Shown here piece after piece: positions 35,892 through 52,674 of a stretch of 64,000 nucleotides of DNA (within the stretch, counting starts at the first letter, position 1; each line of letters begins with the position of its first letter). The notes under the pieces were generated by a model. The model was not told where the DNA came from. It ran no database searches and saw only the letters and a program-made list of their open reading frames with translations. The position numbers and the translations under genes are program-made. This stretch comes from Escherichia phage EK5: sequence record PQ805429.1; one strand, written 5' to 3'.

Positions 35892-35919
35892 TTGACAGCC
35901 TTTTCCTTTATTATATAGT
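35892..35919 (+). promoter_or_regulatory. Sigma70-type early promoter
   Basis: TTGACA, 16-nt spacer, TATAGT; about 45 nt upstream of the first rightward gene at 35964. Confidence 0.55.
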
Positions 35920-37474: not shown

Positions 37475-37840
37475 ATGGGTGTTATCAAGTTTGTAGTGAA
37501 AGTATTTGTAGGCTTCTTTCTGGTTGTTCTCCTGTTAGGTGTCCTGCTGTCATCTATGGGTAGCGTTAAGGCTGCAACATTTTCCCCTGATACGGTTGAC
37601 GGTTTACAGTGCACCTATTTGATAGAAAACTATGAAACTGGTAAAAAGTCACCTAAAGTTATTATTTTACATGTGAATGATTTCGAACATGTACAATCAT
37701 ACGATAAAACTATTCAACTGGTAAATGAAACTACCGGTAAACAAATTACGGTGGATCACTTGATGCGCTCATCGTTGACGCTCTTTGATGAGTCCATGAA
37801 TGAAATGGCATCCGGTAACGGTCAATGTGTAAATCCATAG
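37475..37840 (+). CDS. Early membrane/secreted protein
   Basis: N-terminal hydrophobic segment FVGFFLVVLLLGVLLSSMGSVKA; terminator follows. Confidence 0.45.
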   Translation: MGVIKFVVKVFVGFFLVVLLLGVLLSSMGSVKAATFSPDTVDGLQCTYLIENYETGKKSPKVIILHVNDFEHVQSYDKTIQLVNETTGKQITVDHLMRSSLTLFDESMNEMASGNGQCVNP

Positions 37841-38127: not shown

Positions 38128-38748
38128 TCATTTCATCGGGTACGATGTAAAACATACAAGGCAAGAAATTGCCCCGCTCTTTAAAAATATGATTTGTCTT
38201 ACGGGTGGCGGCGACGTCATTACTATAAGGCGCTCAGTTAATCGGTAGAATTGATTCCTGATTCATACGTGACGCAGGCGGACAATAAGCAATATCAATA
38301 AGCCTTATTTGTTCGATACTTTCAAAAGATTAATGCTTGAAAGCGCACTAGATTCCCTGAAAGACAAATCAGACTTATCATCTTGCCCTTTCGCATAGAT
38401 TCACGCGAGATAAGGGAAAGGAATTAAAAGAAGATGATAAAAAGAGTTGCAAACGTGGTTAAAGTAGTCCATACTAACCACAAGTTAGCAAAACATCGCT
38501 AACTAGTTCCCAAATCAACGTATCGCGGGAAAGGTGGCACATAGTGCAGCGATTAGTTCAGGTGTAGGCGGCCTGTTAATGAATCAGTAAGCCTTCAATG
38601 TGACAGTGATTAGCAGACACTTTAAAAGGCTAAACGCTCTTTAACAATATGAGTCATAAGTTAAGCCTCACCGCTTAATCTTCAATCAAATAAAGCTGAT
38701 TGATATATCCTCCCAATAGCGGGAACGACGAAAAAGATTAAAAAGCGG

Positions 38749-38777
38749 TTGACAGCGAAAACAACATGATTCATAAT
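38749..38777 (+). promoter_or_regulatory. Strong sigma70-type promoter with A-rich upstream element
   Basis: TTGACA, 17-nt spacer, CATAAT, preceded by AAAAAGATTAAAAAG; no ORF with SD within about 900 nt downstream. Confidence 0.55.
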
Positions 38778-39700
38778 GAGCACTCACTAAGCAAATCATC
38801 GCTTCAGTGAAAAGCGTAACAACGGCTAACAGTTGCATAGTGTGAGAAAGCACACTGATAGATTTACCGCTCTTTAATAATTTAAACATTCTCCTATATC
38901 GGTTGAATATGCTTGATGATAATAACCATCGGAAAGCATACCAGATAAAACGGCGTAAAACTCCCTAAATTATCAGGGTAAACAGTTTTACATTCCCTTA
39001 CTGGAAACGTCACCATTGATAAACGGATTCATTGAGTACACGCAAAGACTTGAGCTAATCGCCCACGGTTAAGGGTAGCGGCGGTCATTGCTAACACGGT
39101 GCTACAGTGAAAGAAGTTAATCAGGGTAGGCAATCCCGACGAATTAACGCTCAATTGAGAGCGGCGGGGAGTGGTTAAAAAGTGGCAAATTGCTATTTAA
39201 CAATAAGGTTTAGTGTGAACGTTTACAATGTGAACGGCTTGAGATTCATCTTATGATGAAAGTACATAGTCGGTTTATGTAGTAAACTTGCCGAAAGATA
39301 TAAAACGTCGGAACATTAGACGGTCAATGACTCTTTCGCAATAGTATCCCGTAGTGGGCGATGACTAGCGATTGAGAGTTGATATAAAAGGATAGGCGAG
39401 AGCGAAAGCAAAGTAAACGATATTGCCGACGGTTACAATAACGTAACTAATTAGAGTCGGACGCACTGCCTTATTGTGATGATTGATCATCGCTATCAGG
39501 TCGGCTTCGTTTATAGCGACTAATTAAAGATACCAGATGAAACATCACGGATAAGGGGGCGGCAAGGTTAACTCCTGATAAGACCGCCCCGCTTACCTAT
39601 AACTACTTAACAACGAGTGGTTATAGTTAAGTTAATAGTGACTTAAACAAGCTCATAGAGAGCGGGGCAATAGCGCCCTTACAATTGAAAGGTGAATATT

Positions 39701-41870: not shown

Positions 41871-42087
41871 TAGGAATATAGCCCCCTCTTTTAGTACTAT
41901 GACGCTCTTTCTGTAGCGTCGTGCCCTCTCCCCATTTGAAGCTTCCGCATAGCCGCCTTTGAGCGGCTTTTTGCGTTGCTGTAAGTGCATTTGCGAGTGT
42001 ATTTATAGCAACGGTCATGTGTTGCTTTCAGGTTTGCCCCGGCTACGGCTGGGGCTTTTTTATGTCTACTGTATAGGAATCTATGAA

Positions 42088-42768
42088 ATGAAAGCAATTG
42101 TATTATCCTCAATCCTAGCTCTGTCCATAATGGCATCGCCTGTTTTTGCTAAAAGTGGAAACAATGGCAATGGCAATGGAGGTTGTGGTGTAGGTCAATC
42201 TACCAATGGTTGCGGTATCGGAGATTGGTTTAAAGGTGAAAAAGGTGATCAGGGAGAGAAAGGCGACACTGGCGCTAATGGCATTGATGGTAAAGATGGC
42301 ATTGATGGAGAACAAGGCGCTCAAGGTGAAAAAGGTGATTCTGGTGCAGATGGTAAGAAAGGCGAAACTGGCCTAACTGGTGCAGCAGGTTTGAATGGCG
42401 TTGACGGATTAAATGGCAAAAACGGTAAAGATGCAGATATGTCTGCCGTTAATGCTAACGCCAAATCCATCAAAGCTCTGGAACAATCCACCAATAAACG
42501 TTTTGCTTCTTTGCAAAAACAAGTAGACCGTAACCGTGATCATGCCTCTGCTGGTATTTCTGGCGTGGCTGCAATGGCTAACATCCCGCAAGTAAGTCAA
42601 GGATCTGCTTTCTCTGTTGGTGCTGGGGTAGGTGCTTACGATGGTGAATCTGCTCTTGCTATTGGTGTTAGTGCTCGTTTCAATGAAAACTTAGTAACTA
42701 AAGCATCAGTGGCAATGACTTCAGAGAGTGACGCTGTTCTGGGCGCTGGTGTAAGTTACGAGTGGTAA
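42088..42768 (+). CDS. Secreted collagen-repeat protein with YadA-like C-terminal anchor
   Basis: Signal peptide MKAIVLSSILALSIMASPVFA; Gly-X-Y repeats; C-terminus ISGVAAMANIP ... VGAGVGAYDGESALAIGVSARF ... GAGVSYEW; real start is internal to the listed 41959 ORF. Confidence 0.6.
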   Translation: MKAIVLSSILALSIMASPVFAKSGNNGNGNGGCGVGQSTNGCGIGDWFKGEKGDQGEKGDTGANGIDGKDGIDGEQGAQGEKGDSGADGKKGETGLTGAAGLNGVDGLNGKNGKDADMSAVNANAKSIKALEQSTNKRFASLQKQVDRNRDHASAGISGVAAMANIPQVSQGSAFSVGAGVGAYDGESALAIGVSARFNENLVTKASVAMTSESDAVLGAGVSYEW

Positions 42769-42785
42769 GATAGTGCCTCTCCCGA

Positions 42786-42812
42786 AAGGGAGGGGTGTTT
42801 CTATAAGCATCT
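42786..42812 (+). terminator. Rho-independent terminator
   Basis: CCTCTCCC-GAAA-GGGAGGGG hairpin followed by TGTTTCT. Confidence 0.55.
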
Positions 42813-42878
42813 TTTCGAGGGTGTTTATTGAAACAACAAAACAGGAGGTAGCAAGTTCTGATAACAACGGCACAGCTA

Positions 42879-43268
42879 ATGTTGACATTGACTATTTATT
42901 ATGAGGCAGGGAATCAGCCAACCGCATGTAAGGCTTTAGTTGCGGATACCGTGATAAATAGAATGGCCCAACGAAAACTGACCGCTGAACAGGTGATAAG
43001 ACAGAAGAACCAGTTTGAGTGGATTCCGGTACTATTAAAACAGGAGAAACCTTATAAACGTTATGTAAAGCTGATTCGTGATAAAAATCCGATGACTAAG
43101 CAAGCCATTGGAGAAAGCGAGCGACTTGCTAAACGTGCCCTTAAGAAGAATTATGTTCCGCTGTACAGTGGGACTTACTTTCAGAGTAAGAGCGAAGGGG
43201 TGCCAAAATGGTATGCCAATCCTATGTATTGTGGTGATTTAGTGTTCGATAATAGCTCTAGGGAATAA
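42879..43268 (+). CDS. SleB/CwlJ-like cell-wall hydrolase (Hydrolase_2-like)
   Basis: TIYYEAGNQPTACKALVADTVINRM ... QFEWIP resembles the SleB-family core. Confidence 0.45.
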   Translation: MLTLTIYYEAGNQPTACKALVADTVINRMAQRKLTAEQVIRQKNQFEWIPVLLKQEKPYKRYVKLIRDKNPMTKQAIGESERLAKRALKKNYVPLYSGTYFQSKSEGVPKWYANPMYCGDLVFDNSSRE

Positions 43269-43467
43269 TCACTAGTGCCAGATTTGACAAACTAAATTCC
43301 TTTATAAACCAACCACTTAGTAAATTTATCGAAAAAGATGGTAGTATTCTGGGACTATGGGTAATGCTCTGTATATAGACCCTTTGAAAATTTCTTAGAA
43401 AATAAGTTTACTAAATATAACTTACTTAAATAATATTACTTTTAATCTCTGATAAAGGGTAAATAAT

Positions 43468-43764
43468 ATGACTTTAGAAGTATATAAATTCCTTTTTGTA
43501 AGCTGTTTAACTATCAGCGTTCTAGGATTTATTGTTCTCAGAAACAAAGCAGCAAGCTGGGAAAGAATGTATAAATCCCTAGTTCGAGTGGATGAGATGT
43601 ATAACGAGAAGGTTAAAGTAACACTCAACGATCTTATTATGCAAGTTGAAGACAGAAACAAACGTCTTCAGAACCTCAATCATGAAGTGTTGCGACTTGC
43701 TCGTGCTAATGAAGACTTACGAGTGGCTATTGCTAAGCAGCAGGAGATTAACAGTGAAAGTTAA
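43468..43764 (+). CDS. Membrane-anchored coiled-coil protein
   Basis: N-terminal TM FLFVSCLTISVLGFIVL followed by coiled coil. Confidence 0.45.
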   Translation: MTLEVYKFLFVSCLTISVLGFIVLRNKAASWERMYKSLVRVDEMYNEKVKVTLNDLIMQVEDRNKRLQNLNHEVLRLARANEDLRVAIAKQQEINSES

Positions 43765-43990
43765 TATTAAATCTGATTATACAATGCTTCGATTAAATAA
43801 CATGAAGCCGGGCGTTCTGTTTGAGCGTAAAGAATCCCTTTACATTAGAACCGACACATTGTACGCAGACAATTATGTCAACTGTGTTGATGTGGTAACT
43901 GGAAAGCTCATGCCTTTTAAACGGGATGAAGTCTGCCAAGTACGTAGTGATCTCCACATAACTAACATAGGGGCTAAGGATGAAGATTAA
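43754..43990 (+). CDS. Small-protein family A, copy 1
   Basis: GTG start with SD AGGAG 7 nt upstream; shares MK(I/V)...G.VF pattern with six other ORFs. Confidence 0.45.
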   Translation: MKVNIKSDYTMLRLNNMKPGVLFERKESLYIRTDTLYADNYVNCVDVVTGKLMPFKRDEVCQVRSDLHITNIGAKDED

Positions 43991-44237
43991 TCTTGAAGTA
44001 AATGAACCGTCTTTGTGTGTTGGTGATCTCAAACTTGGAGATGTATTCCAAATCAGGGAAACACGAGCAGATTTCTACATGGTTGTTCAGCTATTTACCT
44101 CACAGATTGAAGAGACCAAGCCTTCTGATGGTGGTTGTGTCGTCCTTAGTCTAACAAATAAGCAAGTCCTTAAGCTCAGCTCGAAAAGCAAGGTTGTTCT
44201 TCTTCATGATGTTGTTATTACTAACAAGGGTAAGTGA
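43980..44237 (+). CDS. Small-protein family A, copy 2
   Basis: MKINLEVNEPSLCVGDLKLGDVF; start overlaps upstream stop. Confidence 0.5.
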   Translation: MKINLEVNEPSLCVGDLKLGDVFQIRETRADFYMVVQLFTSQIEETKPSDGGCVVLSLTNKQVLKLSSKSKVVLLHDVVITNKGK

Positions 44238-44456
44238 ATGGAAATTAAAGTAGTTGATTATCCTAAATATGCAAATGCAGAAGACGTTAAAAGTGGTGAT
44301 GTTTTCTCTTACGATAGACGTTTCTGGCTGATGTTAGAAGATAAAACTCCTGATGGTTTGTGTAAGGCCGCCGATCTGAACAGTGGTTCTGTTGAAGTCT
44401 TCGGTTTATCAACCACTGTTATGCCCCGTCCTGATCTGTGTTTATCCCAAAAGTAA
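44238..44456 (+). CDS. Small-protein family A, copy 3
   Basis: MEIKVVDYPKYANAEDVKSGDVFSYDRRFW; closest to copy 4. Confidence 0.5.
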   Translation: MEIKVVDYPKYANAEDVKSGDVFSYDRRFWLMLEDKTPDGLCKAADLNSGSVEVFGLSTTVMPRPDLCLSQK

Positions 44457-44944
44457 CATCGACTTATAGCCCTTGTGTTTATCAGAGGGCTATGTGAGGG
44501 TGTTCCTCATTAACTTATTAATTCAGGCATATGCCACACCGCTAGGGAGAGCTTGCTCGAACATCCGGTGTTAGACTAAAACCTGTCAATTTTCGAAAGA
44601 CTTTCTGATATGTAGGGGTACATATTGGTTTGGGATTCAGGAGACTTCCTAGGGGTAGGGAGTCTTCACCAGTTGGAATAAGAGATAGCTCTAGAACCTG
44701 AACTCTTAGGCAGAGAGGGTCGGCAATGAGTACGCGGTCAGAATTAGTCTACTGACTAGAGCTATCCCTTATATTAACTGGCAATAATGCCTCCACTAAC
44801 AAAGAGAGATAGGTATGAAAGTATCAACCAAACGTATGAACCGCCCTGAACGTATGGATGTAGTAGCTAATGGTGCTCTGAAACTGGAAGGCTTTTGGAT
44901 TCATGCAATGTCAGCCATCCGTAACAAACAAGGCAATTGGACCT

Positions 44945-45154
44945 ATGCCGGTTAAGACAACCCATGTGATAGGTATGCGAGAGATCATTCGCATTGCCTT
45001 GATGGAACACACAGAACGCAACATTCAACTAACGCAAATCTCTAAGTGTCTTAATTGCTCAAGAGATGTGGCTAAGGAGTTGATGTTTGCATTCCTGTAT
45101 AATGCAGAAGACGAAATGCTACAGAATCATCTGATTCGTTGTGTTAGTCAATAA
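44945..45154 (+). CDS. Hypothetical protein
   Basis: ATG 44945 inside the listed 44903 ORF; terminator follows. Confidence 0.4.
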   Translation: MPVKTTHVIGMREIIRIALMEHTERNIQLTQISKCLNCSRDVAKELMFAFLYNAEDEMLQNHLIRCVSQ

Positions 45155-45159
45155 AGAGA

Positions 45160-45188
45160 GGCTGCCTTCGGGCGGCCTTTGTTGTTTT
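45160..45188 (+). terminator. Rho-independent terminator
   Basis: GGCTGCC-TTCG-GGCGGCC hairpin followed by TTTGTTGTTTT. Confidence 0.6.
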
Positions 45189-45232
45189 AATTAAGGGTCA
45201 GCTCTTACTTAAACTAACAAGAGGAAGCTAAA

Positions 45233-45409
45233 ATGTCTAAGCAAACAATCAAACATACGCAAGCTGGTTACTCTTATGTCAACTCCCCTTGCTGTGGTGC
45301 TCGTGTCAATCTGGTTAAGGAAGAGGTTCGTATCGTTCAGCGTGGCGCTACTGTTGTTCGCTCATGCTGTGTCTGTGGTAATGACATTTTTATCAAAGGT
45401 AAAGTATGA
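45233..45409 (+). CDS. Small zinc-ribbon protein (58 aa)
   Basis: SD GAGGAAG; two CC pairs (SPCCGARV and SCCVCGND); below the ORF-track size cutoff. Confidence 0.4.
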   Translation: MSKQTIKHTQAGYSYVNSPCCGARVNLVKEEVRIVQRGATVVRSCCVCGNDIFIKGKV

Positions 45410-45657
45410 AAAACTTTCAAGCTGCACCGATAACTAAAGTGATCGAAGTTGATGATGTGATGATGACTGTTCCTCTGAACACTCGTTACATTGCAATTGA
45501 CAGGATGGGTTATGTATGGGCTTGGAAGATTAAGCCTAGCTATAACGCACTGTTCGACGAGTTTGTTTGTACTGGTATTTACAGTCCTACATTCTTGGGT
45601 TTATTTGGAGAGTTCGAAGGTCAGTATAAAATCATCACTCTCCCTGCTTGTGCTTGA
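45406..45657 (+). CDS. Hypothetical protein
   Basis: Start overlaps upstream stop (ATGA). Confidence 0.4.
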   Translation: MKNFQAAPITKVIEVDDVMMTVPLNTRYIAIDRMGYVWAWKIKPSYNALFDEFVCTGIYSPTFLGLFGEFEGQYKIITLPACA

Positions 45658-45664
45658 GGTTAAT

Positions 45665-45826
45665 ATGTTCAAGTGGCTAAAGCGTGTCTTTCATTGTCAT
45701 GATTGGAAGATTATTAATACTCGCCCTCTGGTCTATACAGATTCGGATGGGAACAATGACAAGGGCACACGTTACGTTATTCAGTGTAAGGTGTGTGGTG
45801 ATGTTAGTCATCGTGATGTAATCTAA
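45665..45826 (+). CDS. Small-protein family B, copy 1
   Basis: MFKWLKRVFHCHDWK ... CKVCGD; SD GAGG. Confidence 0.5.
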   Translation: MFKWLKRVFHCHDWKIINTRPLVYTDSDGNNDKGTRYVIQCKVCGDVSHRDVI

Positions 45827-45835
45827 GGAATCATT

Positions 45836-46000
45836 ATGATCAAATGGTTCAAACGCTTCTTTCATTTCCATGAGTGGGAAGATCTTCATACTTATGAACT
45901 GACGATCACAAATAAACTTACTGACAGAGAGCGACAAGGGTTGCGTATCTACTCTCGCTGTAAAGTGTGTGGTCTGCACAAGAAAACAGATCTGATCTAA
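45836..46000 (+). CDS. Small-protein family B, copy 2
   Basis: MIKWFKRFFHFHEWE ... CKVCGL; tandem to copy 1. Confidence 0.5.
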   Translation: MIKWFKRFFHFHEWEDLHTYELTITNKLTDRERQGLRIYSRCKVCGLHKKTDLI

Positions 46001-46008
46001 GGGGTGTT

Positions 46009-46218
46009 ATGTTCTTTCGTAAGAAAAAGCCCGAAGATTCTGGATGTAAACATGAGTGGGTGATCACTGAGAACCTACATATCACCCACGCTAAAGACAC
46101 TCCGGTCGAGAGAAAAGAATCTCGTGTATCTCGTATCTGTAAACACTGTTTGAAAATAGAACAGCATAAAGTTCCCGGTCATATCGGTCACGATGTAGCC
46201 ATTCGTATCTTTAGTTAA
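46009..46218 (+). CDS. Small-protein family B, copy 3 (divergent)
   Basis: CKHEW ... CKHC; SD GGGG. Confidence 0.45.
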   Translation: MFFRKKKPEDSGCKHEWVITENLHITHAKDTPVERKESRVSRICKHCLKIEQHKVPGHIGHDVAIRIFS

Positions 46219-46227
46219 ACAAATCTA

Positions 46228-46303
46228 GCACCCTTAGCTCAATGGACAGAGCAGCGACCTTCTAAGTCGTTGGTTACAGGTTCGAGTCCTGTAGGGTGCA
46301 CCA
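46228..46303 (+). tRNA. tRNA-Arg (anticodon UCU, reads AGA), CCA encoded
   Basis: Hand-folded cloverleaf: acceptor GCACCCT/AGGGTGC, D-stem GCTC/GAGC, anticodon stem GCGAC/GTCGT with loop CTTCTAA, T-arm ACAGG-TTCGAGT-CCTGT, discriminator A then CCA. Confidence 0.9.
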
Positions 46304-46322
46304 ATCAACGTAGGAGGTAGTT

Positions 46323-46622
46323 ATGAGTTGGGGTGGTGTAATATCCTTAATCTGTATCTTCCTTGTCTGTGTGGCCCTTACAGGCTGCGTACAGAGCCGT
46401 CCTGATGGATGGTGTGCAGTAGCAGTGGATGGTATTTGTGTATCTCGCTGGCATAAAGGTGAGAAGGTTCCTTCTGGTGAGATTGATATGCGCTGGAACG
46501 GAGCAACCTGCTCTAATGCTAACCCTTCTATCAACGAAGAGAAGTCTACGCCAGACAGTGTTGTGATTGATACAGCGTTGTGGTGTGGTGGCTCTACAGT
46601 TACCACTGGTAAGGAGTGGTAA
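46323..46622 (+). CDS. Cys-rich lipoprotein
   Basis: Strong SD GGAGG; signal peptide with lipobox LTGC. Confidence 0.6.
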   Translation: MSWGGVISLICIFLVCVALTGCVQSRPDGWCAVAVDGICVSRWHKGEKVPSGEIDMRWNGATCSNANPSINEEKSTPDSVVIDTALWCGGSTVTTGKEW

Positions 46623-46623
46623 C

Positions 46624-46872
46624 ATGACAGCTCATTATTGGAATACAAAGAAGCTCCTTGAAGAGATGGCTGGAGTTAGTAGAGTACAGCTAATCTCTAT
46701 GCTTCGAATGGATGCTCGCTCCTTACGCTTCCAAGTAAAGATTGGTAACTTCAGTGATGGCCTTTATTACACGCTGAAGGAAAGGATTAAGAAGACACAC
46801 TTCATTATATATGGACTCAAACCGAGAACATATGTTAACTACATGTATTGGGATACATGCTACGATAATTGA
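46624..46872 (+). CDS. Hypothetical protein
   Basis: ATG 46624 with SD AAGGAG, internal to the listed 46567 ORF. Confidence 0.4.
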   Translation: MTAHYWNTKKLLEEMAGVSRVQLISMLRMDARSLRFQVKIGNFSDGLYYTLKERIKKTHFIIYGLKPRTYVNYMYWDTCYDN

Positions 46873-46879
46873 GGTTATT

Positions 46880-47101
46880 ATGAAACTAGACTCTAAGCAG
46901 TCACTTAAAACCGTTGAGCTGTCCAGCCTTCCAAACGGAAGTGTTTTTGGTCATGATAAACACTTCTGGATTAAAACAGACATCATAAACGATGGATATA
47001 TCACCTGTGTCAATCTTTGGAACGGCTCAGTGGATGGTTATCGCCCTAGCGCAAAGGTAGTCCCTCAACCTGATGCAAAGGCTGTAGGTTTAGTTTATTA
47101 G
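46880..47101 (+). CDS. Small-protein family A, copy 4
   Basis: MKLDSKQSLKTVELSSLPNGSVFGHDKHFW, closely similar to copy 3. Confidence 0.5.
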   Translation: MKLDSKQSLKTVELSSLPNGSVFGHDKHFWIKTDIINDGYITCVNLWNGSVDGYRPSAKVVPQPDAKAVGLVY

Positions 47102-47436
47102 GGAGTATGTATGAGTTGTTTTGGTGGCGGTGAAGTAGATGACGATGATGACATGGAATCCAACGGTACATGTCCTGATTGTGGATGTGAGACGTTTGAT
47201 GGGGTGTCTGTTTATCCTGCCTGTAGTTACTCACCAGTGATCTGTAAAACATGTGGTGATCAGCCGTGTGACCAATCTTGTTAAGAGAATCTTATGACTG
47301 AAGAATTTTTAGAGTGGTTTGGGAACACCTTCAAAGATTATCTATTCTCTCCAGAAGACTTTGAAGAACTGAAAACCTACACTTGGTTGGCTTGGAGAGA
47401 TAGCCGACGAAAGTTGAACAAGTAAGAGATGATTAA

Positions 47437-47694
47437 ATGGGTTTACTTGATATTTTTATCTCAGTTTACTTTATTGGAGTATTCCTTTCTGTCTTAGTGA
47501 TGAAACTGCTATACAAGAAAGGTCTACTAAAAGGGGTCATTACAACAGGGTCTACCAGCTCTGAACCTGATGAGATGATGGTTGTTCTCTTAATTGTGTT
47601 GTGGCCTATCTCAATACTGTCAGGAGTTTTTTATCCAATAGGTTGGCTTCTGTTTAAAGCATATGATGCAGTTATGCATTTTATCTTTAAGTAA
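47437..47694 (+). CDS. Small membrane protein (two TM helices)
   Basis: Two hydrophobic helices. Confidence 0.45.
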   Translation: MGLLDIFISVYFIGVFLSVLVMKLLYKKGLLKGVITTGSTSSEPDEMMVVLLIVLWPISILSGVFYPIGWLLFKAYDAVMHFIFK

Positions 47695-47984
47695 TATCGT
47701 GAAGGATTCTTACGAGAGTCCTTTGAGATAGGACTTCAGATCTCCTATCAAACTAACATTCATGTAACTAGCCCATAAGGGCGTTACCCTTTAATAACCC
47801 AGCCCACTAAGGGGGCGGGAGTTTAGTGCTGGATTAGCATAACGCTTATTCCTACAAAGGCAACCGATTGTTAGATCTTACATGCAATATTAACTAATAG
47901 GATAAGGGAGGATTCGTCCCCTCCCCCTATTTTATTGAATCTTTATCTAAGCAAGTCTTATATAAACGTTTAATTGGAGGATGT

Positions 47985-48296
47985 ATGAAAGCACGAAGAA
48001 CTATATGGACTCCGATGCAGATTGAAAATCTTCGGAGACTGATCAAAGAGTACTCGGTTCAAGAAGTTGCTCAGATTATGAATGTAACGGAGAATGCTGT
48101 TAACACAGCTTGCACTAAATTCGGAATATCAAGAGCTTCAATCCGAGTCAAGTGGTCTAAAGAAGAAGATCAGTTCCTTATCCGTAATGCCGGGTTTATG
48201 TCTATTCAGAGAATGGCTGACATGCTTGGTAGAAGTTATGCTGCTGTACAGAACAGGGCATGTATGCACCTTAATATTAGCCTCAAACTTAAATAG
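47985..48296 (+). CDS. DNA-binding protein with duplicated HTH-like repeat
   Basis: Two repeats W(T/S)..E...L ... (V/M)A..(M/L)....AV..(A/R). Confidence 0.4.
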   Translation: MKARRTIWTPMQIENLRRLIKEYSVQEVAQIMNVTENAVNTACTKFGISRASIRVKWSKEEDQFLIRNAGFMSIQRMADMLGRSYAAVQNRACMHLNISLKLK

Positions 48297-48304
48297 GAAT
48301 CAAT

Positions 48305-48553
48305 ATGAAGATTACTCACAAGAAAGAAGAAGTGTCCACGGTTGATATCAACTCTCTTCCTAGTGGAGCAGTATTTAAATTCCCTGAGAGTTCTACTCTC
48401 TATGTCAAAGGGTCTGTGTCTGAAAGTCCTAATGTAACCGTTAACTCCGATCGAGCAATCACTCTTCGTCTATCTGATGGTAACGTAACAGCCCCTTCTA
48501 TCTGGTGCCGAGTTGTCCCTGTATCGGCAGAACTTTTGGTGGATAATACATAA
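48305..48553 (+). CDS. Small-protein family A, copy 5
   Basis: MKITHKKEEVSTVDINSLPSGAVF. Confidence 0.5.
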   Translation: MKITHKKEEVSTVDINSLPSGAVFKFPESSTLYVKGSVSESPNVTVNSDRAITLRLSDGNVTAPSIWCRVVPVSAELLVDNT

Positions 48554-48798
48554 TGAAAATCATCCCAAAGAAAAAGGATAATACGGTTCGATTGGAAACA
48601 ATCATTCCCGGAAACCCCTTCGTAGTTCAGCACGGAAGTGCCTCTCCTCAGTATTATATGAGGGTTGAAAATGCTTCTGGTAACATCCGTATAGCCAGTG
48701 GCTGGGTTCCTGTAGTAAATCTATCCACAGGTGTACTGTCTGTTAAAGGTCTTGATGATCAGGTAGAAATGATTCGTATGTCTGTGGTTCAGGAGTGA
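48553..48798 (+). CDS. Small-protein family A, copy 6
   Basis: MKIIPKKKDNTVRLETIIPGNPF; overlapping start/stop with copy 5. Confidence 0.5.
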   Translation: MKIIPKKKDNTVRLETIIPGNPFVVQHGSASPQYYMRVENASGNIRIASGWVPVVNLSTGVLSVKGLDDQVEMIRMSVVQE

Positions 48799-49046
48799 GA
48801 ATGAGCACGATACATATTAAGGTTCACAACAAAGAAAAAAAGAAACTCTTTGTTAAAGATCTATCAACCGCTGACATCTTTACTTTAAAAGATGATGACA
48901 GTCAGGTCATTTATTTGATGATGCCTCTATCTGGTGGATATCGCAGAGCAGTTAATTTAGGTACAGGCGAACCTCGTCCTGTTTCTGACACTCTTGAAGT
49001 TGGCGAGAAGTTTGCCAAAGCAGAGATCATCTTAACTCCGATGTAA
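48795..49046 (+). CDS. Small-protein family A, copy 7 (divergent)
   Basis: KDLSTADIFTLKDD; overlapping start/stop with copy 6. Confidence 0.4.
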   Translation: MRMSTIHIKVHNKEKKKLFVKDLSTADIFTLKDDDSQVIYLMMPLSGGYRRAVNLGTGEPRPVSDTLEVGEKFAKAEIILTPM

Positions 49047-49279
49047 GGGTAAGTAAGTGAAAACAAAAGCATATTCTTATGATGATATGATCAACCAGAA
49101 AGGCTTCGGTCAACGCCAGCCTGACGGTTCAATTATCTGGTTTGTAAACGGACAGAAAAAGGTAGCTAAATAAGCCCTCTTCTCTCCTCCTTTTAGTACT
49201 ATGACGCCTCTCTGTGGGCGGCCCAATTTGCGTAGGGAATTCCCTCTACGCAGCCATGACTTTTTAAGGAATTTCCCCT

Positions 49280-49513
49280 ATGTCTAAAGTAAGTGCAATT
49301 GATGCAATCCGTCAACCGTTCCAGTTCCAATCCAAATCAACCCAAACCTTCAGCGAACCTAAGCAAATTCGCTTGGGTGGCACAGAGAAAACTGTGTTCG
49401 ATCTGGCTAAAAACAAGAGCGTTACCGTAGTTGATGGTGGCACTCTGGTTAACGTTTCTCATCGCATCCGCACTGGCAAAACTGCCAAAGATCGTGCTAA
49501 GAAAGGCGAGTAA
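49280..49513 (+). CDS. Hypothetical protein
   Basis: ORF downstream of the conserved 18-mer element. Confidence 0.4.
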   Translation: MSKVSAIDAIRQPFQFQSKSTQTFSEPKQIRLGGTEKTVFDLAKNKSVTVVDGGTLVNVSHRIRTGKTAKDRAKKGE

Positions 49514-49728
49514 TGATAACACTTGTGTCGATCGTTTACAGAATACACTACCGTCTAGACAAAGGTAAGACCTATAAGTGCAAGAGTAAGACAGGCAATA
49601 GATGCTCTGTAGAAAACAACTCTGGTCAATGGGTGGATGTACCTTGTTGTTGGTTCAGGAAAGACTTGACTAACAAAGAAATTGACGAAATCCTTAGTGA
49701 TGATTTTGTAAAATCAAGTGATTTTTAG
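49513..49728 (+). CDS. Hypothetical Cys-containing protein
   Basis: Start overlaps upstream stop. Confidence 0.4.
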   Translation: MITLVSIVYRIHYRLDKGKTYKCKSKTGNRCSVENNSGQWVDVPCCWFRKDLTNKEIDEILSDDFVKSSDF

Positions 49729-50118
49729 TTGTAGTAACGCCTATAGCCTTCTTCGGAGGGCTATGTGAGTTATTCTGACTCAACTAACCTAATCTTAATA
49801 TATTTCCCGTATGGGGCCGATGCTAGGGAGAGGAACATTCCTCGAACATCCGTCGGATAGATATTTTAAGAGCAGGTTATCCACAGATATTGGGTAATAT
49901 CTTTTTGTATTTAAAGCTTGACTCTTTTCGGAGAGTCCTTTTTTAAATTCAACGAGAGGAAATATGTCTAAATTAGATTTAAAACTGCTAGCAGCAGCGG
50001 TAGTGATTTGTGCACTAGCACTGGTAACGCAGAGAACATCTGGATTTATTCAGTGTTTCTTTTCTGGGCAATCCACTTATCAGTGGGTTATTGACGAGTG
50101 TAAACAACAGGAGTAAGT

Positions 50119-50481
50119 ATGAATACACGTCCCATCAAGGGCAACGTTAATATTGAAACTCTGAACAAGGTTGCATCAAACCTCGGTGGTATGTCCAACG
50201 AAGAGCTTGAGCAAGAACTTGCTTGGATTGCAAATGGTATCAAGGTTGCTAAAGGTAAGATTGCTCGTGAGCAAAGTAACATGAAAGCTCATAAGTATCT
50301 AATCCATCGTGCAAACGTGTTACCGGAGCGGGTTGTACATCTTGCCCGTAAAAACTACGCAGAAGCAAAGAAAGCTCTGGAAGAAGCTGAGTTCCAGAAG
50401 CATCAATTTATGAACAACTATCGAAACTTCCGAGATATTCTTTATATTCGTAAGTCGATTGAGTTGATTAAAAACCAATAG
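50119..50481 (+). CDS. Hypothetical protein
   Basis: SD AGGAG; helical. Confidence 0.45.
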   Translation: MNTRPIKGNVNIETLNKVASNLGGMSNEELEQELAWIANGIKVAKGKIAREQSNMKAHKYLIHRANVLPERVVHLARKNYAEAKKALEEAEFQKHQFMNNYRNFRDILYIRKSIELIKNQ

Positions 50482-50492
50482 AGGTTGGTATA

Positions 50493-51692
50493 ATGTTTCC
50501 AGTAACATTAGAAGATACTGAAGGTAATGTTTTAACAGTCAACCCTCCTTGTTATGGGTTCCTTCAGCTTCGCAACTATAACGGTGGCGTTGATGAAGAC
50601 GATGAAGAGTATGATGACTACTTCGACCCTAACATGTATGAGGCAACTCATGGATGGAATATGCACGTTCGAGTGTGGCATGAAGAAGCTAACGTTCGTA
50701 GTGCTGATGGGGAAGAGTTCCTGTTAAGCCGAGAGATGGATATGTGTAAAATCAAGCATATCTGGAACTCTGGAACTCATATGAAGATGTTAGGTTTTAG
50801 ACGTTGGCGTGATGAAAAGCATGTAGCTGAAGCTTTAAGTTGGTGTTCGTATGAAGATGAAGACACGCCCCCTAAGAACAACATCGAACGTTGGAACGAC
50901 AAAAACCCTGAGCATCGAACCACACCTCGTGCTGTACTGGAAGCTATGGAAGCATTTGTGGACAAAGATCGTCCCTCCTGTTTACGCTGGCACGATAAAG
51001 GTTTTATGGGGGTAGCAACTGAGAATATCCCTGCTGATCGTTGTCTGTTCTATTTGATGTTAGACCGAATCTTCTATTGTGAAGATGAAGAGAGTCAAGT
51101 TGAAACCTTCCTCCATAAATGGTTGGTTGAAGGCTGGACAATCCTTCAGGCTTATGTTTACTCACGAATGGTTAGCACTTACACTAACCTCTTAGGGGAA
51201 ACGAAAGCAACTCTGGTTGGTAATGATTGGGATGCTTGTATCTTCCCAGCGTCGCTGTTTACAGTTGGCATGGCTAATAAATACGCTGAAGCATTTCAAG
51301 TGCCTTGGCGTCAACAGTCATATAGAGATGGATGCGGTCATTTCCGTGATGAAGACTTTAAGTGGATTCATTACGAGAATGATGAAACAGCAGAATTACG
51401 AGTTAACAACTCAATGTTCTTGCCAGTGATGCACCCCGATCTAGTAAAAGACGGGTCAGAGACACTTAAAGGTGATAATCTTTTGGTTAACTTTACCCGT
51501 CGCGTGTCTAAAAATGAGAAAACAGCTAACAGGTTAATCTACGGCATTCGTGCCGAGGCTAAAGACCTGTTCAACATCTACAACATCATTCAGCGATTTA
51601 GTAGTGGAACTCTGGACCAAAGTTCGGAGTATTCAGTGATTCCGTCCTCTGAGTGGGATGGTATTATGAGCGGATTATTTTTAGGAAAATAA
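50493..51692 (+). CDS. Hypothetical protein, first gene of the amidoligase cassette
   Basis: 399 aa, tightly packed with downstream genes; no motif recognised. Confidence 0.45.
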   Translation: MFPVTLEDTEGNVLTVNPPCYGFLQLRNYNGGVDEDDEEYDDYFDPNMYEATHGWNMHVRVWHEEANVRSADGEEFLLSREMDMCKIKHIWNSGTHMKMLGFRRWRDEKHVAEALSWCSYEDEDTPPKNNIERWNDKNPEHRTTPRAVLEAMEAFVDKDRPSCLRWHDKGFMGVATENIPADRCLFYLMLDRIFYCEDEESQVETFLHKWLVEGWTILQAYVYSRMVSTYTNLLGETKATLVGNDWDACIFPASLFTVGMANKYAEAFQVPWRQQSYRDGCGHFRDEDFKWIHYENDETAELRVNNSMFLPVMHPDLVKDGSETLKGDNLLVNFTRRVSKNEKTANRLIYGIRAEAKDLFNIYNIIQRFSSGTLDQSSEYSVIPSSEWDGIMSGLFLGK

Positions 51693-51702
51693 AAGGTTAG
51701 TT

Positions 51703-52674
51703 ATGTCAATCTCCACAACGATCGTACCTCTTAATCTTCAACAGGATTTAGGGGAACAGAAGTTCTTAGGTCGTGGGTGCTTCGGTATCCACAACTACAT
51801 GCAAGGTCAAGTCATATATGATGTTAATGACGAATGTGTAATGGAAGATGGGCGCCATAAACGCTTCAACCGTGACATTAACTTGCAATTGGAGATGTTG
51901 AATTACTGGACCCACTCTTTTCATGGTCATGTTCCATCTGATATTGAAAAGAACTTGATTGAAACAGCAGACATTATGAATTCTATGTCTTGCTATCGTG
52001 ATGTATTTACTATCACTTCAGCGAACAGTGTTGCTGTCAATCTTCGTGAGCATCCAGCAGATCAGATCTTCACAGGACTTATGCTCTTCCGTAGTATTCT
52101 GGAAGGGCAATATCGTGGAATGGATTTCCTAGCAGAAGGAATTGAAGACAGGGAAGAGTGGCTGAAGCGTAAACGCATCGGCATCGCTCTAGTGTTAGCT
52201 GGGTTGGGTCGTGACTTCTTCGGTGGGTGGTCTCAACGAGGAAGAGCCAATGGGAGTAGCGAGAGCACCTCTATTGTTATTAACAACAATATGTCAGCAG
52301 CAGCTTTCCTTCCTTTGGTTGTAGACTCTGATGAATATACGAAGCAAGTATGGGTTCAAAACCCCTTCGGTGTTGGCGACAATGAGAATGGTTATGTTCG
52401 TAACCACAACCAAGATGCCTTACGAAGATTTGCTCGTGCTAAAGATCAAGACCCAGACGAGTATGAAACAATGTCAGAGTGGTTAAGACTCTGGTCCAAC
52501 TGTTATGGTCACAAACGTGAAGCAATAGACGACAAGTTGGGAAACATTACGGTACAAAACTTTACATCCCGACTGATTCAAAGAACTGGAGCAGATTCCG
52601 GTCTTACTCTTGAAGAAGTTGGTAACACAATCTCATCTCTCTTTTCTGAACTAGTGGAGTATTACAATGACTAA
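51703..52674 (+). CDS. Hypothetical protein (cassette)
   Basis: 323 aa; overlaps the next gene start. Confidence 0.45.
   Translation: MSISTTIVPLNLQQDLGEQKFLGRGCFGIHNYMQGQVIYDVNDECVMEDGRHKRFNRDINLQLEMLNYWTHSFHGHVPSDIEKNLIETADIMNSMSCYRDVFTITSANSVAVNLREHPADQIFTGLMLFRSILEGQYRGMDFLAEGIEDREEWLKRKRIGIALVLAGLGRDFFGGWSQRGRANGSSESTSIVINNNMSAAAFLPLVVDSDEYTKQVWVQNPFGVGDNENGYVRNHNQDALRRFARAKDQDPDEYETMSEWLRLWSNCYGHKREAIDDKLGNITVQNFTSRLIQRTGADSGLTLEEVGNTISSLFSELVEYYND

Follow-up and report, generated by a model that had tools for sequence, protein, structure and literature searches.

A repeated, structured RNA element in the early gene cluster of phiEco32-like phages

The 64-kb stretch of DNA from Escherichia phage EK5 that was analysed here (sequence record PQ805429.1; the whole stretch is referred to below as the window) carries two copies of an intergenic element of approximately 100 bp, and the question raised by this locus is what such a repeat represents. 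An earlier note, prepared from the sequence, had taken the copies to be RNA-processing or stability elements, or promoters for the phage sigma factor. The data presented below demonstrate that the repeat is a structured RNA element of modular build, carried in phiEco32-like phages by the polycistronic early transcript of the sense strand. It is a new structured RNA motif, well supported and absent from Rfam, and it probably governs the fate of the early transcript where it lies, although its function can only be inferred.

The repeat is a structured RNA

Both copies are situated on the + (sense) strand, copy 1 at 44466-44571 and copy 2 at 49742-49856. As the earlier note had described, each begins with a hairpin (H1), and the ATAGC...GGCTAT hairpin occurs in the window only at the two repeat sites. 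H1 is not followed by a U-tract in either copy, GUGAG being present instead, and that of copy 2 (49743-49764) carries a C(UUCG)G tetraloop. H1 is separated from the GCTAGGG block by 47 nt in copy 1 and by 57 nt in copy 2. Three shared blocks (11, 12 and 12 nt) are found in identical order and on the same strand at both sites, and a motif search of the whole 64-kb window returned exact matches to GGGCTATGTGAG, GCTAGGGAGAG and CTCGAACATCCG at these two sites only. A covariance model of the core, designated R1 and built from 16 distinct core sequences, scored 79.5 bits (E 5e-24) at 49811-49864 in copy 2 and 55.8 bits (E 5e-16) at 44530-44579 in copy 1. R1 found no third copy in the window, nor in the phiEco32 stretch covering the part of the genome that lies outside it. 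Since the blocks, the hairpin and R1 match only at these two sites, the repeat is not due to chance.

Alignment of both copies with their relatives revealed that the conserved blocks are the unpaired parts of a single hairpin. Its core consists, in order, of a helix of 6-7 bp (P1), the joining strand J1/2 (CUAGGG[A/C]), a second helix of 3-5 bp with a tetraloop (P2; longer in one phage) and the strand J2/1 ([G/A]AACAUC). The overall format is G-CUAGGG[A/C]-P2-[G/A]AACAUC-CG, with a 7x7 internal loop between P1 and P2. The core of copy 1 occupies 44536-44571 (P1 ACACCG/CGGUGU, CUAGGGA, P2 GAG-CUUG-CUC, GAACAUC), with GCTAGGGAGAG at 44541-44551 and CTCGAACATCCG at 44556-44567; that of copy 2 occupies 49817-49856 (P1 CCGAUG/CGUCGG, CUAGGGA, P2 GAGGA-ACAU-UCCUC, GAACAUC), with the same blocks at 49822-49832 and 49841-49852, respectively.

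It is apparent that the helices of the core have been kept by compensatory changes in independent lineages. P1 is wholly different between lineages but is always paired (ACACCG/CGGUGU, UCACCG/CGGUGA, CCGAUG/CGUCGG, UUCGGUG/CGCCGAA, AAUAGCG/CGCUAUU and CAGCG/CGCUG), and the length of P2 shifts in whole base pairs (GAG-CUUG-CUC, GAGA-CUUG-UCUC, GAGC-AACU-GCUC and GAGGA-ACAU-UCCUC). In the 16-sequence core alignment, canonical pairing was observed in all 172 of 172 pair cells, and 5 of the 11 pairs had changed on both sides; in a control in which the partner was slid by 1-3 columns, pairing fell to 29-51%. RNAalifold, applied to ten copy-2-type sequences, returned 54 pairs, 10 of them compensatory, and these included pairs in P1 and in two further helices, P0 and H3, described below. 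The z-scores of the minimum free energy (MFE) were -3.98 for copy 2 and -3.18 for copy 1. G-U pairs are confined to the + strand, and the folded molecule is therefore the sense transcript. The earlier suggestion of an RNA element is thus borne out by compensatory pairing in all helices and by the strand specificity of the G-U pairs. Processing or stability, the role that had been suggested for such an RNA, is retained below as a rival explanation; it leaves the invariant nucleotides of the internal loop unexplained.

Those nucleotides (CUAGGGN/NAACAUC) are invariant except at the two N positions, which change together, and they are identical from Kuravirus through Salmonella phage 7-11 to a Citrovirus-like contig. 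The two positions on either side of P2 were compared in 37 distinct instances: they are A.G in 22, C.A in 12 and A.A in 3, and the Watson-Crick combination C.G is never found. These positions behave as an isosteric non-canonical pair within a structured internal loop. Because the loop is identical across lineages and the P2-flanking pair covaries without ever becoming C.G, a specific tertiary or binding site is indicated. The sequence of the loop, on inspection, fits neither the K-turn nor the sarcin-ricin consensus, and both identities were rejected.

The element exceeds its earlier description, in that it begins at the upstream stop codon and contains additional helices. The order of the module is (A)GUAAC, H1, H2, a G-free AU-rich stretch, H3 and P1/P2. 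Conservation starts at (A)GUAAC, which contains or adjoins the stop codon of the upstream gene. The stem sequence of H1 is conserved; H2 covaries among copies (GAGU/ACUC, GAGC/GCUC, GAGG/CCUC, GAGUUA/UAACUC, GGGA/UCCC and UAUACA/UGUAUA) and is followed in every copy by an AU-rich stretch of 20-30 nt that lacks G. H3 is a mini-hairpin of 3 bp, also covarying (GGC/GCC, GCC/GGC and CCC/GGG), with the variants GCC-AUAU-GGC in Suseptimavirus, CCC-GUAU-GGG in copy 2, GCC-GUAU-GGC in 7-11 and CCC-AUAU-GGG in the Citrovirus-like contig. In copy 2, a long-range helix, P0, is predicted to enclose H3 and P1/P2 in a three-way junction of ~95 nt. Its pairings (UAACCU/AGGUUA, CUUAA/UUAAG and AUAUUU/AGAUAU) were obtained both from the single-sequence MFE fold and from RNAalifold, and three pairs of its middle segment are altered on both sides in the 7-11 group.

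The earlier note's other proposal, promoters for the phage sigma factor, did not survive. The promoter recognized by that factor, gp36, is a single element, tAATGTAtA, situated 6-8 bp 5' of the start site (PMC8948821), and the six that have been mapped lie upstream of genes 6, 13, 26, 40, 58 and 68 (PMC8948821, PMC4331800). With one mismatch allowed, the motif TAATGTATA was found neither around 44466-44571 nor around 49742-49856; on the + strand, the closest match is at 43565. The location is also wrong, since the genes that the copies precede are the homologues of 112 and 90, members of the early cluster, and not middle or late genes. The sole sigma-70-like match, CTGACT-18-TATATT at 49775-49804 in copy 2 (9/12), has its -35 inside the covarying H2; copy 1 has no such match, and the 7-11 version lacks an acceptable -10. 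In Suseptimavirus, covariation of H2 from U-A to C-G converts CTGACT to CTGGCT. A sigma-70 promoter was rejected because compensatory changes of this kind weaken the -35; P0 and H3, in addition, need RNA 5' of the putative start.

H1 was rejected as an intrinsic terminator, given the GUGAG that follows it in place of a U-tract; it is also missing from the list returned by the terminator scan. At the gathering threshold, Rfam 15 detected only a tRNA-Arg in the window, and at E values up to 10 nothing overlapped the motif; a tRNA identity was likewise rejected, ARAGORN being negative for the motif. Searches of the literature on phiEco32 antitermination and on its non-coding or structured RNA found no report of the element, and a search for Kuravirus transcriptomes found no RNA-seq or transcription start site study of a Kuravirus.

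Occurrence among phages

A megablast search with positions 42000-52000 matched 109 phage records at 80-99% identity, all of them phiEco32-like podophages (Kuravirus, Gordonclarkvirinae), and the window is accordingly assigned by its sequence to a phiEco32-like Kuravirus. The phiEco32 genome runs in the reverse orientation relative to the window. The earlier note had made its reading depend in part on conservation in related genomes, and such conservation is present in Kuravirus, Suseptimavirus, the Salmonella 7-11 group and Citrovirus-like phages. Both intergenic regions were found in ~100 Kuravirus and Suseptimavirus genomes, which have two copies of the module per genome; the Salmonella 7-11 group has one, as do two Citrovirus-like phages. 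The copy-2 region is 69-74% identical over ~220 nt in the Salmonella phages 7-11, SE131 and pSal-SNUABM-01 (Grimontviridae), the value for 7-11 being 69%, and in these phages the region precedes the endolysin gene. Only 27-32% of the open reading frames (ORFs) of phiEco32 and 7-11 are mutually homologous (PMC8948821).

A pattern of the core motif was run against collections of viral contigs, metagenomes and genomes, and ~40 loci were returned. Under R1, true members scored above 50 bits and chance pattern matches below 23 bits. The scans added two divergent members. One of these, L049, is a 48.7-kb contig that had been binned as a Flavobacterium metagenome-assembled genome but is really a Citrovirus-like phage, and it scored 53.6 bits; the other, Klebsiella phage KpnP_VR7901, scored 19.4 bits and has a long P2. 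Ten further candidates from freshwater phages (L011, L014, L034, L040, L048, L023, L025, L029, L047 and L050) scored below 23 bits with P1 unpaired and were rejected, as were matches of high G+C content, which also scored below 23 bits, lacked P1 pairing and were judged to be due to chance. The combination ccgatgCTAGGGGGAGACCTTG...CTCAAACATCCG that recurs in L011, L014, L034, L040 and L048 proved to be a Shine-Dalgarno sequence and TTG start of a small membrane protein (19.5 bits). In L049, many of the small early ORFs between 1900 and 5700 end in ...EENE (or ...DEENE) and a stop codon, because each of them overlaps, at its end, with the ribosome-binding site (RBS) and start codon of the gene that follows.

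Among 80 loci near homologues of the neighbouring COOH.NH2 ligase gene, only those of Kuravirus, Suseptimavirus and 7-11 have the motif. This patchy occurrence is that of a module behaving like a cassette. A tblastn comparison of the ORFs of KpnP_VR7901 and L049 with module-positive and module-negative phages identified no partner phage protein that shares the distribution of the module. Because the copy-2 region is conserved in 7-11 despite the diverged ORFs, and because no phage protein co-occurs with it, a host target for the module is likely. No sign of host mimicry was obtained, as the copy-1 intergenic region gave no match at E 0.1 when 5,426 E. coli genomes were searched by blastn.

Genomic context and neighbouring features

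Copy 1 is situated in a 358-nt gap between the homologues of phi32_113 (44238-44456) and phi32_112 (44815-44955), and copy 2 in a 235-nt gap between those of phi32_91 (49513-49728) and phi32_90 (49964-50116), the genes being numbered as in phiEco32. Both gaps are inside a cluster of small + strand genes that the literature places in the early class (PMC8948821), and the four sigma-70 early promoters map to the start of that cluster (PMC8948821). Among leftward gp36 promoters, the first is found at gene 68, although gp79 is classed as a middle gene (PMC8948821). In the early region, 26 terminator-like sites were counted on both strands, compared with 13.4 expected, and the strongest of them are on the + strand.

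At the 5' edge of copy 1, the conserved AAGUAAC (44451-44457, +) includes the stop codon of the phi32_113 homologue (44454-44456). Conservation in the alignment begins exactly there, and the coding sequence upstream differs between relatives. An AACAY sequence near this edge can pair with RUGUU at 44500-44504, and C-G, U-A and U-G variants of the pairing were seen. H1 of this copy (AUAGCCCU...AGGGCUAU at 44466-44493, within a hairpin spanning 44465-44494) has a stem of 8-10 bp, UAUAGCCCU/AGGGCUAUG; it is followed by H2 (GAGG-GUGUU-CCUC, 44496-44508) and H3 (GGC-AUAU-GCC, 44526-44535), all on the + strand. Three more + strand hairpins are found downstream of the core: one with a GGGG loop (CUGAUAUGUA-GGGG-UACAUAUUGG, 44605-44628), which covaries (ACGUA/UACGU in phiEco32); a second with a UA-GGGG-UA loop (44640-44667), which also covaries (GGGAGAUCUCC/GGAGGUCUUC; AGAGAACAAUC/GAGAGUUCU); and a long, variable terminal hairpin (44684-44766) that contains an insertion at 44692-44758. 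A small hairpin ahead of the phi32_112 RBS closes the structures of this intergenic region.

The insertion is 67 nt in length and is 79% identical, with an exact core of 23 nt, to P22-like Salmonella phages (positions 701-767 of L055, from ST104). In those phages the similar sequence is flanked by nutL (boxA CGCTCTTTAA, boxB GCGCTGACAAAGCGC) on one side and by the beginning of gene 24, which is the analogue of N, on the other. NJ01 and Suseptimavirus lack the insertion, which looks like the result of horizontal exchange of a leader hairpin. Because this P22-like insert precedes phi32_112, which encodes a 46-aa protein with a basic N-terminus, there is a hint, by analogy, that the copy-1 region may serve as a leader with a regulatory role, of the same general kind as that between nutL and gene 24. 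The phi32_112 protein itself was rejected as an N-like partner, having no Pfam or PHROG function and not being encoded next to the module in 7-11, KpnP_VR7901 or L049. Its homologue in 7-11 is gp135. Directly upstream of the gp135 gene is that of gp136 (L021 5012-5227), a small protein with a zinc ribbon and with a match to the PHROG family 'anti-termination protein Q-like' (E 3e-16). Downstream of gp135 there is an unannotated gap of 711 nt (L021 4135-4845, - strand; 82134-82844 in Salmonella phage 7-11), which holds two tRNA-like 3' halves (GGTTCGAATCC... and GGTTCGACTCC...) that were not called by ARAGORN.

The 5' edge of copy 2 is the conserved AGUAACG (49733-49739, +). It falls in the run of in-frame stops at the end of the phi32_91 homologue, which terminates in four codons with three such stops, TAG-TTG-TAG-TAA (49726-49737); other phages use as their stop codon the UAA or UGA contained in the conserved GUAAC or GUGAC. 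The features that follow are all on the + strand. H1 (about 49742-49765) has 9-10 bp, and H2 (GAGU-UAUUCUG-ACUC, 49767-49781), which is GAGC/GCUC in Suseptimavirus, overlaps the -35-like CTGACT. The predicted 5' strand of P0 (UAACCU, CUUAA and AUAUUU) occupies 49785-49805 and its 3' strand (AGAUAU, UUAAG and AGGUUA) 49859-49879; between them, ahead of the core, is H3 (CCC-GUAU-GGG, 49806-49815; pair counts CG:7, GC:3). At 49877-49885 is the DnaA-box 9-mer TTATCCACA, one of two exact copies in the window; it is made up of the conserved AUCCACAG read together with the 3' strand of P0. This candidate DnaA box is conserved in 7-11 and pSal-SNUABM-01, and its flanks GGTTATCCACAG are conserved as far as Salmonella phage 7-11; its first five bases (UUAUC) are in or beside the P0a helix. 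A hairpin, GAUAUU-GGGU-AAUAUC, at 49887-49902 is absent in 7-11. There then follows an intrinsic terminator (49910-49948), consisting of a stem (49920-49937), the sequence CUUUUUU and a complementary A-tract. This terminator (49920-49946) is strong and ends ~17 nt ahead of the gene 90 start codon. A terminator is present 3' of copy 2 in every lineage, abutting the RBS of the next gene, and one is annotated at the equivalent site in 7-11 and SU7; the spacing to it varies from 28 to 45 nt.

Two other non-coding regions of the early cluster deserve mention. A third conserved, structured intergenic region (47695-47985) is found between phi32_101 and phi32_100; it starts with AAGTAATATCG, like copy 1, and contains several hairpins and a terminator (47906-47925). 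The region is conserved in SU7 (L016 5280-5560) and has an annotated promoter there. The mostly non-coding segment 37780-39200 (+), at the start of the early cluster, is occupied by a cluster of boxA sequences and is situated beside strong sigma-70-like promoters (35892-35919 and 38749-38777). One boxA extends to the rrn 12-mer GCTCTTTAACAA, and near copies were observed at 37779, 38047 and 39191. Matches to the boxA pattern numbered 24, compared with 10.9 expected, and 24 was reached in 0 of 100 shuffles. An exact boxA is also present at the early-operon start in the Citrovirus phages KpnP_VR7901, CVT22 and Pecta and in L049. The cluster suggests Nus-factor antitermination, of the rrn/lambda type, of early transcripts.

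Possible function and comparison with known systems

The genomic context fits control of termination, since a terminator always follows copy 2, terminator-like sites are enriched, and gp79 is a middle gene with no gp36 promoter before gene 68. Genes 90-69 include that of gp79, for which no promoter of its own has been mapped. It is possible, and is put forward here tentatively as the leading explanation, that the element is a leader RNA which acts in cis and, by binding a host component, adjusts read-through at the terminators that lie downstream, thereby gating genes 90-69. The element would act in cis on its own transcript, and the invariant loop would be the docking site for a conserved host component, of which the transcription elongation complex is the best candidate, as for the put RNA of phage HK022. 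Binding would alter the handling of downstream terminators by RNA polymerase (RNAP), the first to be affected being the strong one at 49920-49946, directly 5' of genes 90 to 69. The two copies would then be operon-internal gates between the early gene blocks 112-91 and 90-69, and their number parallels putL/putR and nutL/nutR, in which there are also two similar copies, one per gene block. The logic would be put-like but the ancestry would not. The authors of the 7-11 study themselves expect an undefined antitermination strategy (PMC8948821).

Several points weigh against this proposal, the mechanism of which is drawn by analogy from context. Copy-1-type modules have no clear intrinsic terminator, the U-rich tail being paired in the consensus fold, and strong terminator-like sites are also found 5' of copy 1 (40623, 41951 and 42036). 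With filters off, the best R1 score in the 24-31 kb segment of HK022, assumed to be its early control region, was 10.5 bits, and R1 found nothing in the P22-type nutL region of ST104; because both regions were negative, homology of the element to put or nut was rejected. GAP52, CVT22, Pecta and seven more relatives of about 57-97 kb lack the module, a patchy spread that is more in keeping with an accessory cassette than with a central element of control. Lastly, three exact copies of boxA (38175-38184, 38635-38646 and 38868-38877) are situated just downstream of strong early promoters, and a boxA/Nus system may already supply processive antitermination, a second signal then being less needed.

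Other explanations must be weighed against the same data. It is rather doubtful that the element is processed into a stable non-coding RNA that acts in trans as a decoy, sponge or small RNA, H1 and H2 capping the upstream mRNA and the RNA from P0/H3 to the terminator being released (~160 nt in the case of copy 2 and ~300 nt in that of copy 1). Through the CUAGGG loop, the UA-GGGG-UA hairpin loops or the unpaired AUCCACAG, the released RNA would bind a protein or an RNA of the host. Consistent with this, the copy-2 unit begins after a stop codon, ends in a strong terminator and is conserved as one block despite different flanks (gene 90 in the window but an endolysin gene in 7-11); loops rich in G are found repeatedly, in copy 1, KpnP_VR7901 and L049; the patchy, accessory-like spread is typical of early-region host-takeover or anti-defence cargo; and no partner phage protein was found. 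Such an RNA would, however, have no credible promoter, given a -35-like hexamer in a covarying helix and the RNA that P0 and H3 need 5' of the putative start, and no target was identified. In addition, read-through of the copy-2 terminator must occur, because ~17 nt leaves no space for a promoter before gene 90. That the element punctuates the mRNA, as an intercistronic processing or stability element with a role like that of T7 RNase III sites or T4 intercistronic hairpins, is unlikely. According to this explanation, H1 and H2 guard the upstream 3' end, a host RNase cuts in or near the G-free AU-rich stretch or P0, and H3-P1-P2 guards the new 5' end. It accounts for very stable hairpins without a U-tract directly after stop codons, one with a cUUCGg loop, for the 20-30 nt without G that follow H2 in all copies and for a T7-like repetition within a long polycistronic early operon, and, if the target is a host RNase, the conservation of the element in several phage genera would be explained. 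Nonetheless, an RNase III site calls for ~20 bp or more of near-continuous helix, and P1 and P2 together, at just 9-12 bp, are probably too short; P0 adds ~17 bp, but in copy 2 only and interrupted by loops. The AU-rich stretch of copy 2 is itself paired in P0, with covariation, and neither 14 invariant loop nucleotides nor isosteric non-canonical covariation would be needed for mere protection of ends.

The remaining explanations are less probable again. A riboswitch-like attenuator, in which the junction is an aptamer and the ligand-dependent stability of P0 selects between terminator and antiterminator helices, is very unlikely. The architecture of copy 2, with a closing helix, an invariant-loop junction and a terminator 40 nt downstream, is what such a device would present, and AAGAGCAGGUU (49868-49878, in the 3' strand of P0) can, when read by eye, pair with AGCUUGACUCUU (49915-49926, in the 5' strand of the terminator) in an alternative helix of 11 bp with one bulge and two G-U pairs. 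That helix, however, is weak or absent in the 7-11 group, as judged from its sequence; the spacing to the terminator is inconstant (28-45 nt), copy-1-type modules have no terminator, and no Rfam aptamer matches even at E 10. The least probable explanation is that the element acts as DNA, whether as a promoter (sigma-70 or gp36), an operator, a DnaA-box replication origin or the boundary of a recombination cassette of the T4 PeSL type. The 9/12 sigma-70-like match in copy 2, an exact DnaA box conserved to 7-11 and a conservation that begins exactly at the stop codon, with differing upstream genes as at a cassette junction, could all be taken in its favour. But the gp36 motif is absent, copy 1 lacks a sigma-70 match, early promoters have been mapped, in published work, to the start of the cluster, the first five bases (UUAUC) of the DnaA box are in or beside the P0a helix, and the substitutions preserve RNA pairing, including strand-specific G-U pairs, and not promoter hexamers.

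A more far-reaching form of the preferred explanation, read-through control by a host-binding leader RNA, would hold that this is a new protein-independent, host-directed RNA (a put-like antiterminator acting on E. coli RNAP, or a new riboswitch), that it gates the early and promoter-less middle genes 90-69, including that of the sigma-70 inhibitor gp79, and that it has spread as a horizontal cassette among sigma-factor-encoding enterobacterial podophages. All of this together is distinctly unlikely. The matter is nevertheless of interest, phiEco32 being a model for phage control of host RNAP (by the sigma factor gp36 and by gp79). That model has had two gaps, namely how middle timing is conferred on the genes that lie between the early promoters and the first promoter for gp36, and how RNAP gets past so many terminators in the early cluster; at this very boundary, a conserved RNA domain of ~45-100 nt precedes a conserved terminator and is a concrete, testable candidate. 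Whatever its function, the motif is common to four phage lineages in three higher taxa (Gordonclarkvirinae, Grimontviridae and Zobellviridae) and can be used in annotation pipelines.

Resemblances to known systems are partial. Copy 2 is like transcriptional riboswitches in having an invariant-loop junction, a closing helix and then an intrinsic terminator; it differs from them in the absence of an Rfam aptamer match and of a conserved alternative antiterminator pairing, and copy 1 has no terminator. The PeSL cassettes of T4 are likewise stem-loop units at gene boundaries of a plastic early region, with sharp stop-codon edges and differing flanking genes, but they comprise an early promoter and a stem-loop, whereas the present element has no conserved promoter and is a complex, covarying RNA domain with invariant loops. 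The early RNase III sites of T7 are repeated intergenic hairpins in a long polycistronic transcript, and their cleavage leaves protective 3' hairpins. The element resembles them as a repeated intergenic hairpin with a conserved internal loop in an early polycistronic transcript, the T7 sites being the target of a host enzyme; unlike them, it has helices that are probably too short for RNase III (P1 6-7 bp, P2 3-5 bp), extra hairpins and a junction, and only one or two copies per genome.

The nut sites of lambda and P22 also number two per genome, and they gate delayed-early genes at terminators. Like them, the copy-1 intergenic region has a segment homologous to the P22-type nutL-gene 24 leader, and a gene for a small basic protein (phi32_112) follows. 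A nut site, however, consists of boxA and boxB and works with N or gp24, and the module has neither boxA nor a boxB-type pentaloop hairpin: a CGCUCUUUA-like boxA is absent on the + strand of both modules, the sole nearby match (49865-49874) being on the - strand.

The HK022 put RNAs are two similar copies with non-canonical purine pairs, which act without a dedicated phage protein and are upstream of terminators (PMC9378689). They consist of two stem-loops and a triplex and are just downstream of promoters, whereas the element described here is a hairpin with a 7x7 loop, in a predicted three-way junction, and is placed after gene blocks; put binds the zinc-binding domain of the RNAP beta' subunit and, with no need of protein factors, suppresses pausing and termination, and here a binding of RNAP is proposed by analogy. 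Like putL and putR, nevertheless, the element is found twice per genome, in similar copies that lie on the sense strand of early operons, it has ~70-100 nt of stacked helices with non-canonical purine pairs, of a kind that is functionally important in put, and it is sited upstream of terminators with no dedicated phage protein.

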